Source: a virus (Duplodnaviria > Caudoviricetes). Taken from it: DNA of 64,000 bases. The notes beneath the pieces were generated by a model. That model did not search any database. It was not told the DNA's origin and worked only from the letters and a program-made list of their open reading frames with translations. A program made the translations under genes and the position numbers. Shown piece after piece: positions 4,995 to 52,959 of the stretch. The stretch lies in the IMG/VR virus record IMGVR_UViG_3300009031_000368, positions 167,715-231,714 of that record, one strand, 5' to 3'. Numbering within the stretch: position 1 is the stretch's first letter; each line of letters begins with the position of its first letter.

Positions 4995-5816
4995 TTAATC
5001 GATGTGTGCGACAGCGACATTTAAATCATGATCAGCATCTTTGTCGCAAGAATCTAAATACTCACAAATCGAATACAGCATGGTTCTGCGCAATTGATTG
5101 CACGCCTGGTTGTCGCAAACAAAGTAATCCTCACAGTATGTATCTTCACAGTCACCGCGCGACACATACATGAACGCGGCACGGCCATCATACCAGAACG
5201 AATCGATGGTAACGAAACTGTTGTCACAGTCCAAAACGTGTTGATGTCGGCGAACCTCACAACCTCGTACTACAATTTCAGAATATCGGTCACCGTTAAG
5301 ACCATCCACCAAATAATCTAGATGACGCCAAACCTCATCACATTCAATCACGGTGTATGGGAAGTTTAGCGCGTCAGCGACCGTAGGTCGATACAATGCC
5401 TTTATACGAACAATTTCGCTTTGCTCTAATGCTACAAATTTAGAATCTTGCTCGAGCCAGTCGATCCAATCTCCAACGTCGCTGGACTGTATCAGCTCTT
5501 CCCTTGTGTCGAGAGGCTTCCAGTGCTCCAGCACTTCAATTAAATCTTCATCCGTAGCCAAACAGTTTGTAACTCTATCGCCAGAACCTGTCACGTCTTC
5601 AGGAAATTTCATGCATTCGGCCCATTCCCCATCACCGGCATGGAATGTGCCATCACCGTTACTTACAGCGACTTCCCTGAACCATCGTGGTTCTCCGTTA
5701 AGCAGCTTCCCGGTGAAGAACCGAAGGATGGTTTCGTTTCGGATCCTTCTCATATAAAGCTTACCTGTAACGATGTTTTCCATGATGGTCTCACTTCGCG
5801 GTTGAATCGGCAACAA
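4995..5816 (-). CDS. hypothetical protein
   Basis: 273-aa acidic ORF; start probably MENIVTG. Confidence 0.7.
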   Translation of the reverse strand: MLPIQPRSETIMENIVTGKLYMRRIRNETILRFFTGKLLNGEPRWFREVAVSNGDGTFHAGDGEWAECMKFPEDVTGSGDRVTNCLATDEDLIEVLEHWKPLDTREELIQSSDVGDWIDWLEQDSKFVALEQSEIVRIKALYRPTVADALNFPYTVIECDEVWRHLDYLVDGLNGDRYSEIVVRGCEVRRHQHVLDCDNSFVTIDSFWYDGRAAFMYVSRGDCEDTYCEDYFVCDNQACNQLRRTMLYSICEYLDSCDKDADHDLNVAVAHID

Positions 5817-48344: not shown

Positions 48345-49379
48345 TCAGAAAATCTGGCTAAATACCGGGTAAAGCGCGTCATTGGCAGAACTATCCACCG
48401 GCACCGACCAGAATCCATCATGACTGCCAGGGATAATGGTACAACCGTGCTGCCGGCCATCGGCATTGTAACACCGGCCGCGATTACCGGTCAAGTATCC
48501 GTACAGCCTGGCATTGTCATCGGTCAACACATACTGGTCGGCCGAGAATCCGACATGCACGTAATTGATATTCTTGAAAGCGCCACGAGGCACGATAGGT
48601 CGCTTCATGTCGGCATCCAGCCCAAGCATATTGAATGCCGCCGTGCATGGCTCTCCGTTGTTCATATAACTGGCTTCATCGTCGGTCGGAACCGCTCCGT
48701 CATACAGCTCTCCCGTATTTCGATCCGTAAAGAATGCATCCGTCCAGTCGTCATTGGTCTGCATCTTGAAGTAACAGCCATTGGAATCAAGCTTCATGGC
48801 CGCCAGCAACGTCGCATAAATGTCTGGATTGGCCAATCCTCGCCAAAGCAGCCCATCAGGCAACGTAGATGCGAACAGCACAACATCGGTAACGCCGAGA
48901 TCATCGATCGACGAATCCTGAGCGATAAGATCGGCCTGAAGGCTCTGGATCGTGATACCGCCGAGGCTATGGCCGATAAGTGCGACTTCGTGCCCGTCGT
49001 AAGTGGCTTGCAACACACTGTCAAGCGCATCAACGTAATTGTCCAGGCTTGTTTCGCCGTAGATGCCCGGATACTCGGAAGTGCCATGCGCGGGGAGATC
49101 CACCACGTATACGCGATTTACGTCAAAGCTATCTGTCAAATACTCAGAAAGGGGAACCGAGACATCGCCGTCATGTGCCATCCCATGAACGATGACGACA
49201 TTCTTCCCATCAGGATCGTAGCCGTTTAAATACCGCACCGTTACTTCGGTGCCGTGAGTCACTCCGGCCTGAATCATCGGAACGGTCAACTGACCATCCA
49301 GCTCAATCTGAGGATTTGCAAAAGCCGTGTCAGACATAAGAAGTCCGGCCGCCATCATCAAGGAAGCATGCTTAATCAT
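48345..49379 (-). CDS. secreted alpha/beta-hydrolase (esterase/lipase)
   Basis: Signal peptide ending AFA; VIVHGMA, VVDLPAHG, IGHSLGG (GxSxG), SADQ, GSHDG. Confidence 0.88.
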   Translation of the reverse strand: MIKHASLMMAAGLLMSDTAFANPQIELDGQLTVPMIQAGVTHGTEVTVRYLNGYDPDGKNVVIVHGMAHDGDVSVPLSEYLTDSFDVNRVYVVDLPAHGTSEYPGIYGETSLDNYVDALDSVLQATYDGHEVALIGHSLGGITIQSLQADLIAQDSSIDDLGVTDVVLFASTLPDGLLWRGLANPDIYATLLAAMKLDSNGCYFKMQTNDDWTDAFFTDRNTGELYDGAVPTDDEASYMNNGEPCTAAFNMLGLDADMKRPIVPRGAFKNINYVHVGFSADQYVLTDDNARLYGYLTGNRGRCYNADGRQHGCTIIPGSHDGFWSVPVDSSANDALYPVFSQIF

Positions 49380-49470: not shown

Positions 49471-49606
49471 GCAAATTCGACTAGAATTTTCAACTTAGCT
49501 GTTTTTTAAAATATTCCTCACCAATAATGCCACCGTTACAACTGTAACAATGGCGCTCATTCCTGCCACAAATGCCCCAATCTTAACTGCTGTACGAATC
49601 ATAACA

Positions 49607-50014
49607 TTACTCTCCTTTGTTTACACCACAATAACGCAAACATTGATGTTCAAAATCTGAATTTTTGCACTTATGTTCACCAAGCACTGGAATATGTGCC
49701 TGGAACCATTCTTCAGCCATGCTGTAGTCATAAACAATGCTGGATGACTCAATGAAACAAACAAGGTGTCCATTTATTGATACGAAATCAAACTCTGCGC
49801 ACACAGGCATTGGTTCATATTCGTCTTTTTGGTTTCTGCGATACAATGTACCTATTTGCTGAATGAATCCTCCATGTTGGATCCATTCCATGGAGTACTT
49901 TATCGATTTACTCTCGTTGTTATACGACTGCCATGCGTTATATCTACTATCGCCATCTTCGATAACGACATACTCTATCTGTTTGAGCGCGTCAGCCAGG
50001 GTACCTAACATCAT
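49607..50014 (-). CDS. hypothetical protein
   Basis: Coupled to the 2H gene. Confidence 0.6.
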   Translation of the reverse strand: MMLGTLADALKQIEYVVIEDGDSRYNAWQSYNNESKSIKYSMEWIQHGGFIQQIGTLYRRNQKDEYEPMPVCAEFDFVSINGHLVCFIESSSIVYDYSMAEEWFQAHIPVLGEHKCKNSDFEHQCLRYCGVNKGE

Positions 50015-50592
50015 AGCGGTTCTACCTTTGTCGTTTTACCAACCGTATACACGATTTTCTGCCCAACGGCAGGAACGAAGTCGAAGATATCACGATTTAT
50101 GTAAATGTTATACGATTCATCGTTAAATGTTACATCCATGTAAACCTTAATGGGTCCAATATGCGTGATGATGGCATCATAGTGTATATTGATGGGACAC
50201 ATAACGTTTCGGCCCAAGCTGATATGAAAGTCAGAACGTGGTTTATCGGATAACCCATAATGTTGCCTGATTTCAGTAAGTGCCTTACAGACGACCGATA
50301 ACCACCATGTTTTGCCATCAGTCATCACGTTACTGCTATATTGAAAATAAAACTTAAGTCCGTCATGACCGTACCAGTCTTCAACGTTACGGTTCGGCTT
50401 TTCACTCTTTATGATGGAAATGTGAGAACCAAACGCGGGACGTTCAAGCATTACTCCGCGCTTACGTAGGAATGACCGGTACAGATCAACGATGCCTTCA
50501 CTACACTTCAACGACATCCGCCAATCTGTAATTGACTGTTTACCACTAAGTGTTGGCGGATCCGTTACAATGTAACCATAACTGTCAAGCAT
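50011..50592 (-). CDS. 2H phosphoesterase family protein
   Basis: Two HxS motifs, PAFGSHISII and SDFHISLG. Confidence 0.75.
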   Translation of the reverse strand: MLDSYGYIVTDPPTLSGKQSITDWRMSLKCSEGIVDLYRSFLRKRGVMLERPAFGSHISIIKSEKPNRNVEDWYGHDGLKFYFQYSSNVMTDGKTWWLSVVCKALTEIRQHYGLSDKPRSDFHISLGRNVMCPINIHYDAIITHIGPIKVYMDVTFNDESYNIYINRDIFDFVPAVGQKIVYTVGKTTKVEPL

Positions 50593-51202
50593 TGGTAATT
50601 ATCCTAAACGTTGACTTCAATCCATTATAGATAGGCTGGAATTCTGCCTTGTAGATTTCCCAACCAGTATCCGCTGGATGCCGACTAATTGATTGCCAGT
50701 AATGTTGCACGGAATCAAAATCAATCGTGCCAACCATTGCCAGTTGGATGCCAAAATCTATGATGCGCAGACTATGGAACAGGCTCTTTCTTGCCGTATG
50801 TGGCGCATAATCGGCCGGAACCGTTAGCTTCTTTTTGGCTTTAACGAAACTGTTGGATGCCTTAGCCGAAAATGATTCTCTCAGCATCCGCGTATCTGGC
50901 TCGAAATCGAATATAATAGTTTGTTTAAGCACATGACGGTATGGTAACATCACACATTCGACAGCCGTTACATCATGGCAAAACAATGCACGTTTAAAGT
51001 CCGTTTCGCCGTAAACGGTTACATCAATCATTGGCGCTTGAAGTTGAACGTATTGATATTCGTCTGACGCCACTACAATGTAATCGGTATCTGACTGTTC
51101 TGATGCTGTTCCATAAACCGTTGACCCATACCGGTATACGTTATGGATAACAGTTATGCCGTTAGAGGCAAGAAGCAACATGAGTTGTTCTAATTCATTC
51201 AT
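50585..51202 (-). CDS. pol-beta superfamily nucleotidyltransferase
   Basis: YRYGSTVYGTASEQSDTDYIVV (GS...DxD); helical C-terminus KSLFHSLRI. Confidence 0.85.
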   Translation of the reverse strand: MNELEQLMLLLASNGITVIHNVYRYGSTVYGTASEQSDTDYIVVASDEYQYVQLQAPMIDVTVYGETDFKRALFCHDVTAVECVMLPYRHVLKQTIIFDFEPDTRMLRESFSAKASNSFVKAKKKLTVPADYAPHTARKSLFHSLRIIDFGIQLAMVGTIDFDSVQHYWQSISRHPADTGWEIYKAEFQPIYNGLKSTFRIITNA

Positions 51203-51672
51203 TGTTTTCCGACAAGCATTCTTCCGTGTCCTGAAATATTGAGCTGGAAGTGACCAACGTTAAATCCAAGACCTTCAGCATATCTGGCTAGATGGTTGTA
51301 CCATGCCAGACTATTACCAGTTTTGAATTCAGTAACTGTTGGCCGGACACAACACGGGACAACCGCGAACGGTACTTTTCGCTTTGCCGCTTCAGCGATT
51401 ATTACATCGGTGGCTTCATCGGGATGCATACCGACCACAAGATCAAATTCATCCTTAATCGATTGATCAAACAGTCGCCACCTGATGTTAACCCGTCTGG
51501 CATTCTTTCGACGCTGTCCATCGAAGCTAACAACATGGTAACCAAACCGTGACAATTCTAGATTCAGCTCGCCAGTACCGCCAGCCACATCGGCAACCAG
51601 TCGATACATGGATACTGGAAATTGCCGTGCAATCAATTGCGCAAACTCGACAAAACGCCTTGAATCGCCCAT
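51199..51672 (-). CDS. class I SAM-dependent methyltransferase
   Basis: VADVAGGTG motif I; FDLVVGMHPDEAT; PFAVVPCC. Confidence 0.8.
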   Translation of the reverse strand: MGDSRRFVEFAQLIARQFPVSMYRLVADVAGGTGELNLELSRFGYHVVSFDGQRRKNARRVNIRWRLFDQSIKDEFDLVVGMHPDEATDVIIAEAAKRKVPFAVVPCCVRPTVTEFKTGNSLAWYNHLARYAEGLGFNVGHFQLNISGHGRMLVGKQ

Positions 51673-51673
51673 C

Positions 51674-51931
51674 TTAATTCCTCGTAGCTGGTGACTCTCT
51701 GGTCTCCTTAACCGTCAACCCGGTATCGGTCTTCCATACGCGAAGCGATTCGACCAGCGGTTCGTTATGCGACGGACGGCACCATAGACAGTTTAGATTC
51801 CTGTCATTGATTGACAGATGAAGATGGCCGTTTTCCATAACGGTACCAACGACAACACTGTCTTCCTTCCGGACAATTAAATCGCCGGGCTGCTTAGACT
51901 TGAAATCAACCACGGTAAGAAGATTTTCCAT
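51674..51931 (-). CDS. hypothetical protein
   Basis: ORF after promoter 51979-52007. Confidence 0.6.
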   Translation of the reverse strand: MENLLTVVDFKSKQPGDLIVRKEDSVVVGTVMENGHLHLSINDRNLNCLWCRPSHNEPLVESLRVWKTDTGLTVKETRESPATRN

Positions 51932-52015
51932 ACTGGTTTTCCAATTGTTGGTTCAGGTTGTCTGTTATCGATGTGCCCACTATGGCATCATTATACAGGT
52001 ATGTCAAGATATATT

Positions 52016-52471
52016 TTAAGGAGTATCGGTAATCGTTGTTGCCGTGGCGGTAAGGGTTGTTACTGTTCTAACGAACGTAACGCTTGATGGCGGAGTCATT
52101 CCTGGCAATTTACTAAAAACTGCTTTGATACGATCAAATATCACTTTATGGGTTAAGTCCTGTGGAACGTCCCCATCAACCGTGATAAGAATTCCAACTG
52201 GATGCGTACCCTCAATATCAGCAATATTGGTCGTCACATCTCCGCTGTCCGTAAACATATCATCATAATCACTGACGTTCTCGGCAATCCATTCGTCTAC
52301 CGGATGTCCATAAATAGGGCTAACGAAATTATCATTATCCGTGAAATCGATTACCTCCGTTAATGCATCAACGGCACGCCTTAATCGAAGTGCAGCTCTG
52401 ATTGGCATAATATCGTCAAATGGTGGGATGGTGAACATTACCCGGATCAGTGTTTCAACTGATTCACTCAT
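52016..52471 (-). CDS. hypothetical protein
   Basis: Acidic ORF coupled to the YqeY gene. Confidence 0.6.
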   Translation of the reverse strand: MSESVETLIRVMFTIPPFDDIMPIRAALRLRRAVDALTEVIDFTDNDNFVSPIYGHPVDEWIAENVSDYDDMFTDSGDVTTNIADIEGTHPVGILITVDGDVPQDLTHKVIFDRIKAVFSKLPGMTPPSSVTFVRTVTTLTATATTITDTP

Positions 52472-52959
52472 TTCAGACCCCTTTCAATTCCGATGGCGCG
52501 CACAACGGTTGGATCGAATTTACCGAGACCAGATTTCATAACGGTACCAATAAACTGGCCGAGCGACTTGGCTGATTCTGCAATTGATTGCACCAACTGT
52601 TTCGTTTCATCGACAGAAAGGAACTTCGGCAAATAACCGGTTAGGAGCTCAATTTCAGCACCGTATTGAGCCGAAAGTGGAGTCTGCCCCATAACGGTAA
52701 TCGACTTTTCCAGGCTTTTCACGTATCGCCTGACGACTGCCTCTTCGCCATCTGGTGTCCAACCGGTAAAGTTTCCCGACTTTTCATCACGTTCAAACTC
52801 AGACAGAATGTTACCCATCACGGTGCGGGTAAACTGATCTCTGTCCAAAAGCGCCTTACGCGAACGTTCAACAAACTGTTGTTTTAACATTTTGATTCCT
52901 TCCATAATATTCAACGGATCAGTCATCACGCTTATTGGTCCACTTTGTTTTAAGCGCAT
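52468..52959 (-). CDS. GatB/YqeY domain protein
   Basis: ALLDRD...ILSE...EIELLTGYLPKFLS..E...MK. Confidence 0.75.
   Translation of the reverse strand: MRLKQSGPISVMTDPLNIMEGIKMLKQQFVERSRKALLDRDQFTRTVMGNILSEFERDEKSGNFTGWTPDGEEAVVRRYVKSLEKSITVMGQTPLSAQYGAEIELLTGYLPKFLSVDETKQLVQSIAESAKSLGQFIGTVMKSGLGKFDPTVVRAIGIERGLK

Follow-up and report, generated by a model that had tools for sequence, protein, structure and literature searches.

The IMG/VR virus record IMGVR_UViG_3300009031_000368 is a 231,714-bp contig, 76% complete by CheckV, from an uncultured jumbo phage. Its final 64 kb, the whole stretch analysed here and called the window below, carry on the minus strand three overlapping genes: one for a class I S-adenosylmethionine (SAM) methyltransferase (MTase), MT157; one for a Pol-beta nucleotidyltransferase (NTase), NT205; and one for a 2H phosphoesterase, 2H193 (Table 1). 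An earlier note on this DNA had recognized the three enzyme classes and the overlaps. Open reading frame (ORF) coordinates bear out the overlaps, which are 4 nt between the MTase and NTase genes (51199-51202) and 8 nt between the NTase and 2H genes (50585-50592), and invariant family motifs bear out the class I MTase, the GS...DxD signature of the NTase and the two HxS motifs of the 2H protein. Judging from their homologues, all three are real genes and not chance ORFs, since the MTase has 101 homologues, the NTase 300 and the 2H protein 456 cluster representatives at E ≤ 1e-3. The note went on to propose that the trio is a coupled module that repairs RNA or makes and destroys a nucleotide signal. 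Our main result is that the trio is not a conserved module.

Do the overlaps themselves speak for a shared function? They say little about it, because tight spacing is the rule in the window: its 72 adjacent same-strand ORF pairs include eight with a 4-nt overlap, four with an 8-nt overlap (12/72 for the two together) and nine with a gap of 0-10 nt. The coupled string also exceeds the trio; it runs from p85 through the MTase, NTase and 2H genes to p135 and then to a possible 35-codon ORF for a membrane peptide.

Gene neighbourhoods in other phages gave a direct answer. Profile searches found no member of the 2H or MTase family at any of 70 NTase loci (5 kb on either side), no NTase or 2H family member at any of eight MTase loci, and no MTase family member at any of 41 2H loci (this last set was drawn partly by a scan with a narrower 2H alignment, which samples mostly one motif class). 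The NTase family occurs at one of the 41 2H loci, that of Bacillus phage G, where it is 2.4 kb away with six genes between. The full trio was thus found at none of the 70 NTase, 41 2H and eight MTase loci, nor does any pair of its genes recur there at operon range, and the claim of a coupled module is not supported by this synteny check; lack of joint conservation is a refuting condition that the note itself had set. At the 8-kb locus of the sole full-length relative of 2H193 (L087), neither partner stands beside the 2H gene. In five phage records that carry the MTase, of which three are at least 97% complete, the 2H family has no match and the NTase profile gives only weak ones (16-24 bits), in long ORFs of the RlaP type. 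The 50,697 deposited phage records include 59 with the NTase family, 33 with the 2H family and none with the MTase family.

From profile comparison and modelling, NT205 is a short, mostly viral relative of RlaP and T4 NrdC.11 that lacks the ~100-residue helical-domain insertion. We place it there because hhalign matches its family profile to the NrdC.11/RlaP alignment (probability 96.2%, E 2.8e-9, 122 columns) and because its Atlas model superposes over the whole length (198-202 residues) on clusters that are 94-100% PF10127, with template-modelling (TM) scores of 0.82-0.84. PHROG 388, the T4 NrdC.11 family, also matches NT205 (E 7.7e-10). The Pfam RlaP model (PF10127) gives a sub-threshold score, 15.4 bits against a cut-off of 23, over the N-terminal core only, and is matched at E ≤ 0.01 by four of 27 NT205 family members; hmmsearch with the NT205 family adds a weak, collinear second motif match (KSLFHSLRI vs KALMHAVRI). 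G26-S27 and D38-x-D40 are invariant in 27 homologues, and E82, the SNSFVKAKKK helix and KSLFHSLR are further conserved. D60 aligns with the third-Asp column of RlaP, a column that is D, N or S (often N or S) across the short family, and NT205 itself has all three catalytic carboxylates of the RlaP type (D38, D40, D60).

The AlphaFold2 model of NT205 has a predicted local distance difference test score (pLDDT) of 96. Its best match in the Protein Data Bank (PDB) is HalB of the Hailong system (Z 11.4, root-mean-square deviation 3.6, 169 residues, 11% identity), followed by the ANT/AadA aminoglycoside NTases at Z ~9; no RlaP structure is among its solved-structure matches. An MntA-like antitoxin or aminoglycoside NTase was considered and rejected, the similarity being at core-motif or fold level only and with lower Z. 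A CD-NTase signal synthase was likewise rejected: there is no Pfam match, and the best PADLOC match is PDC-S09, a minimal NTase, at 20 bits. The NT205 family is nearly confined to phages: among 185,579 species genomes it was found in just seven contigs, of which several are probably phage bins.

The phage has in addition a canonical NrdC.11-type RlaP of its own (326 aa, PF10127 43.7 bits, 31% identity to the NrdC.11 proteins of T4-type phages); 1533 phage records hold homologues of it. This gene lies outside the window, 76 kb from the trio and 3.3 kb from an RNA ligase gene (PF09414), at ~136.9-142.5 kb of the contig. A CCA-enzyme-like gene (PF01743) is present at ~160 kb of the contig.

What company does the short NTase family keep? 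Its commonest neighbour is NAMPT, encoded directly upstream on the same strand in ten of the 70 loci and at a spacing of 4 nt or less in four; these loci occupy at least five positions in the NTase tree, and NTase identity among them falls as low as 29%. An ADP-ribosylglycohydrolase gene is near, and downstream of, the pair in six loci. The PF01467 NMNAT was absent from three of the four NAMPT-NTase records searched; the records that lack it are 21-82% complete. In phage XacN1 the NTase homologue has NMNAT/Nudix, NADAR and NAPRTase genes around it. The NAMPT-NTase pairing is the sole real linkage that we found, and it is the most promising lead; the trio is not involved in it. Genes of RNA metabolism also occur around the family: RNA ligase is near the NTase gene in four of the 70 loci, the homologue in Bacillus phage Kirov is 1.2 kb from an RNA ligase and a polynucleotide kinase, and that in a Vibrio phage is near tRNA clusters.

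The two HxS motifs of 2H193 are H57-I-S59 and H123-I-S125, and H57, R109 and H123 are invariant in 45 homologues, the two histidines in HIS/HLT contexts. A word-index homology search with 2H193 returned the protein itself only, single-protein scans of viral contigs with it and with its relative P0223 gave no match, and a PDB sequence search gave nothing useful. The 456 cluster representatives came from an exhaustive HMMER search; almost all are of 120-170 aa and match residues 1-130. The C-terminal extension of ~60 residues is common to just one of them, P0223 (192 aa, matched residues 4-185). Pfam 2H-SAK (PF22547) scores 25.2 bits on 2H193, the cut-off being 27, and is matched at E ≤ 0.01 by 38 of 45 family members (best 2.4e-8); PHROG 12204 matches 2H193 at E 3e-22.

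In the AlphaFold2 model of 2H193, pLDDT exceeds 90 over residues 1-132 and is ~51-62 over the extension, at which level no fold can be assigned to the last 60 residues. The top 50 VIA matches are all 2H enzymes (Z 4.9-6.7, ~100-110 aligned residues), with weak Foldseek E-values, and the scores are tied between CNPase (Z 6.7), Acb1 (6.5), ns2 (6.4) and LigT (~5). On this modelling the 2H fold is settled, and the tied scores do not fix the substrate.

The 2H family has characteristic neighbours of its own. A His_Phos_1 phosphatase gene follows the 2H gene in 17 of the 41 loci and a phage-encoded EF-Ts precedes it in 19. At L087 the next gene past the 2H gene weakly matches a dual-specificity phosphatase, and a giant-virus protein annotated as such a phosphatase is among the viral fold matches. 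In phages of the CBB/GAP32 type the 2H gene is found among genes for RNA ligase, a DUF2828 protein (annotated as RNA-binding in phage Kaldavass), the S30EA ribosome hibernation factor, a CCA-adding enzyme and Nudix. The order 2H-then-phosphatase is consistent with RNA-end healing in which a cyclic phosphodiesterase acts first and a phosphatase second.

MT157 belongs to a family of the Methyltransf_32 (PF13679) type. The Pfam model scores 21.7 bits on MT157 itself, under the cut-off of 27, and is matched by 35 of 36 family members (best E 7.5e-11); on this ground a Hen1-type MTase was rejected. Columns invariant among 36 homologues are the N-terminal M-G-D-x-x-R, G32xG34 (motif I), M82-H-P-D85 and P106-C-C108. 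The 101 homologues are all of 150-175 aa, and both bacterial and phage clusters are represented among them in the Atlas; the eight IMG/VR loci of the family have no neighbours in common. The Atlas model of MT157 has a predicted TM score (pTM) of 0.94 and matches clusters of the eukaryotic Trm44 catalytic domain with a TM score of 0.86 over residues 1-157, a comparison of predicted with predicted structures. The Trm44 family model PF07757 was matched by one of 36 MT157 family members, at E 0.075, which does not place MT157 in that family by sequence, and a PDB sequence search gave generic motif-I matches only. The modelled resemblance to the tRNA 2'-O-methylase Trm44 is thus structural only, and we treat it as a lead.

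The trio is surrounded by a long minus-strand array of small genes. Megablast of the region found no match among the 50,697 deposited phage genomes, and the phage has no close relative there. Genes for NAD synthase (NadE) and an NMNAT-like fusion (NMNAT-PRTase) lie at 43-47 kb of the window, 3-6 kb from the trio. Scans of the window and the whole contig for tRNA genes and Rfam families found nothing (aragorn: zero tRNA genes in the contig). At the head of the string, p85 has zero Pfam, PHROG, NCBIfam and PADLOC matches. The promoter-like sites upstream of it (TTGACA-17-CATAGT with TG, and TTAAAA-18-TATAAT) mark a possible start of a transcription unit; the region's count of such sites is not above the shuffled expectation. 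At the other end, p135 has no Pfam match. A distant homologue of p135 (26% identity; L084:2856-3173) is found ~0.8 kb from a 2H gene in the uncultured 595-kb phage LR756511; this hints at a 2H-p135 link and is too weak to call. A hairpin is present at 49529-49554, inside the candidate 35-codon ORF.

Table 1. Features of the coupled string and its flanks, with the loci used for comparison. Positions are those of the window unless a locus is named.
Feature	Position	Strand	Basis and remarks
Alpha/beta hydrolase, 344 aa, hydrophobic N-terminus	48345-49379	minus	Abhydrolase_6 E 1.7e-13; just downstream of the string; own promoter-like TTGACT element
Candidate 35-codon ORF, hydrophobic single-helix peptide, unlisted	49495-49602	minus	GGAG-type ribosome-binding site; starts just past the p135 stop
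p135, 135 aa, function unknown	49607-50014	minus	4-nt overlap with the 2H gene; PHROG 18096 E 4.4e-9
2H193, 193 aa, 2H phosphoesterase	50011-50592	minus	ORF and homology
2H193 residues 133-193 plus stop, beta-rich C-terminal extension	50011-50196	minus	Model
2H193 residues 1-132, 2H-SAK-type 2H domain	50197-50592	minus	Pfam, PHROG 12204, model
NT205, 205 aa, Pol-beta NTase, helical C-terminal domain	50585-51202	minus	ORF and homology
MT157, 157 aa, class I SAM MTase, Methyltransf_32 type	51199-51672	minus	ORF and family alignment
p85, 85 aa, function unknown	51674-51931	minus	ORF list; heads the coupled string; 1-nt gap to the MTase gene
Promoter-like sites	51979-52019	minus	84-nt gap upstream of p85; consensus matches only
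YqeY/GatB-like protein	52468-52959
RNA ligase of this phage	L091:4875-6254	minus	PF09414
Canonical RlaP of this phage	L091:9570-10550	minus	PF10127
NAMPT-NTase loci	L013, L014, L015, L016, L017, L022, L037, L038, L044, L074		NTase at ~5001-5600 of each
Example 2H loci	L102-L120 and others		2H at ~5001-5390
Phosphatase flank of the 2H gene, example	L102:5393-6049
EF-Ts flank of the 2H gene, example	L102:3236-4156

How, then, is the trio best explained? The reading that we favour, with a probability of about 0.55, is that these are three accessory enzymes, each mobile independently of the others and each of a known RNA-end or tRNA type, that have become neighbours by accident of position. The trio would sit inside an RNA- and NAD-related accessory region of the jumbo phage; p85, the MTase, NTase and 2H genes and p135 would, we infer, probably be co-transcribed, and each of the three enzymes would most likely work alone on RNA ends or tRNA. 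The substrates that we infer for them differ in their footing. From its fold, its two catalytic HxS motifs and the neighbours of its family elsewhere, the probable task of 2H193 is to open the 2',3'-cyclic phosphate ends that metal-independent RNases leave, with ADP-ribose 1'',2''-cyclic phosphate as an alternative substrate. From its homology to RlaP/NrdC.11, NT205 probably extends RNA 3'-OH ends by one or a few nucleotides, like RlaP; the preprint that characterised PfRlaP and PaRlaP shows that RlaP enzymes add 1-2 nucleoside monophosphates to such ends (Carruthers et al. 2025, PMC12776372). MT157 probably methylates RNA, possibly tRNA ribose, a weak assignment drawn from its structural resemblance to Trm44. 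Both 2H and RlaP enzymes have already been described as RNA-repair parts of jumbo phages, and the 2H enzymes of these phages have been proposed to act in RNA-end healing (Iyer et al. 2021, PMC7824862).

Several observations weigh against this reading. The pairing with NAMPT points to NAD metabolism, not RNA, for the NTase family. As the phage already has a canonical RlaP, the second, short RlaP-like enzyme may have a different substrate. The best solved-structure match of NT205, HalB, is a protein-primed poly-dA synthase according to a review (PMC13434031) that covers Tan et al. 2025. Five IMG/VR contigs hold both the NTase and the 2H family, 8-20 kb apart, and phage G has them 2.4 kb apart; distances of 8-20 kb suggest a common accessory neighbourhood, not an operon. 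Finally, the translational coupling of the trio could reflect a lineage-specific functional link that is invisible to synteny elsewhere.

A second reading is an RNA repair-and-protect module, which we think unlikely. Here the 2H enzyme would heal cut tRNA, the NTase would restore nucleotides, and the MTase would 2'-O-methylate the junction or end against a second cut, as in Pnkp/Hen1 systems. Translational coupling of the trio speaks for this, as does the RNA-end or tRNA affinity of each family, seen in the RlaP homology, the 2H-SAK type and the Trm44-like model respectively. These affinities make an RNA-end or tRNA role plausible protein by protein, and this much of the earlier note's proposal stands; the single coupled module is not supported. 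Nowhere in the surveyed loci are the three genes conserved together, overlaps like theirs are routine in the window, and by Pfam the string has no ligase, kinase or 3'-phosphatase, the RNA ligase and canonical RlaP of the phage being 76 kb off. The Pnkp/Hen1 analogy, too, fails in detail, the MTase being of the Methyltransf_32 type and the string having neither kinase-phosphatase nor ligase. As for the structural parallels that the note suggested, NT205 does fit RlaP (TM 0.82-0.84), Acb1 at Z 6.5 ties with CNPase and ns2 for 2H193, and the MTase, with its Trm44-like model, is not of the Hen1 type.

Improbable to a greater degree is a role in NAD or ADP-ribose metabolism, in which the substrate of the NTase would be a nicotinamide or ADP-ribose nucleotide (it might, for instance, work with NAMPT as a non-canonical NMN adenylyltransferase) and that of the 2H enzyme ADP-ribose cyclic phosphates, which it would hydrolyse, both in an NAD-restoring counter-defence island. 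Such a role would account for the recurrent, tightly spaced NAMPT genes at scattered positions in the NTase tree, for the ADP-ribosylglycohydrolase genes nearby, for the records without a PF01467 NMNAT, for the XacN1 neighbourhood and for the NadE and NMNAT-PRTase genes near the trio in the window. However, the homology of the NTase points to RNA 3'-end NTases and its context in Bacillus phage to RNA ligase and polynucleotide kinase, the NMNAT-less records are incomplete to the extent given above, and a canonical NMNAT is present in this phage as it is in XacN1. Clustering of RNA-repair genes with NAD genes is in any case a known feature of jumbo phages (PMC7824862). A more specific version is that the short RlaP-like family is NAMPT's nucleotidyltransferase partner, a Pol-beta-fold non-canonical NMN adenylyltransferase or NAD/ADP-ribose transferase, in a variant NAD+-reconstitution directed against NAD-depleting immunity, in which the 2H enzyme would remove ADP-ribose cyclic phosphates; we rate this as lower still, a long shot.

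Least probable of all is action on a nucleotide signal, with the 2H enzyme degrading a host immune second messenger like Acb1, or the NTase making a signal or decoy (such as HalB-like oligo-dA that keeps the Hailong channel closed). In its favour, Acb1 belongs to the group of tied top fold matches for the 2H domain, HalB heads the solved-structure matches of the NTase, with D38/D40 aligned to HalB D21/D23, and the NTase family is almost phage-only. Against it, sequence searches gave no match to Acb1, to CD-NTases or to any PADLOC model; NT205 as a whole is fitted better by RlaP-family models than by HalB, to which it is 11% identical; and in other phages the 2H family is surrounded by translation, RNA and phosphatase genes instead of anti-defence genes. 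The earlier suggestion that the trio makes and destroys such a signal thus finds no specific support.

Had the trio been a true module, it would have been a new phage RNA repair-and-protect system, and the evidence speaks against this. What emerges instead is three families. The first is a compact, almost phage-only branch of RlaP/NrdC.11 that the Pfam RlaP model misses and that is often found in operons with NAMPT. The second is a widespread stand-alone phosphoesterase of the 2H-SAK type, habitually followed by a phosphatase, an order that fits two-step healing of cyclic-phosphate ends. The third consists of uncharacterised MTases of ~160 residues whose predicted fold is Trm44-like and whose N-terminus is invariant. 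All three are tractable biochemical targets for asking how jumbo phages sustain translation under host attack.

It remains to set the three proteins beside known systems. Acb1, a phage nuclease of the 2H type directed against the cyclic-oligonucleotide-based antiphage signalling system (CBASS), is similarly small and has the 2H fold; however, 2H193 has no Acb1 match in Pfam or PHROG, its fold score for Acb1 ties with those for unrelated 2H enzymes, and the gene neighbours differ. With Pnkp/Hen1 and T4 Pnkp-Rnl1 the trio shares the general idea of RNA-end healing, possibly then methylation, but the string is without a kinase-phosphatase, a ligase or a Hen1-type MTase. Hailong HalB (PDB 9dbh/9dbi/9dbj) is similar to NT205 in fold and in size (217 aa), with the catalytic aspartates aligned; sequence profiles, however, tie NT205 to RlaP and not to HalB, NT205 is phage-encoded whereas HalB is host-encoded, and the neighbours of NT205 include no channel-like Pfam or PADLOC match that could be a HalA-like membrane partner. 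RlaP/NrdC.11 itself shares with NT205 the GS...SDxDY core, the E(C/M)LF.P strand and the helices with which the C-terminal domain begins. NT205 differs from it in being ~120 residues shorter, in missing the helical-domain insertion and scoring below the Pfam cut-off, and in that the RNA ligase of the phage is ~76 kb away instead of adjacent, the short family being often paired with NAMPT. Lastly, 2H193 resembles 2H-SAK (PF22547), LigT, CPDase and CNPase in its two HxS/T motifs and 2H fold, and its family is found near phosphatases and RNA and translation genes; but whereas the 2H-SAK domain belongs to a multidomain SAK protein, 2H193 stands alone as a mini domain of ~130 residues with an extra C-terminal extension of 60 residues.

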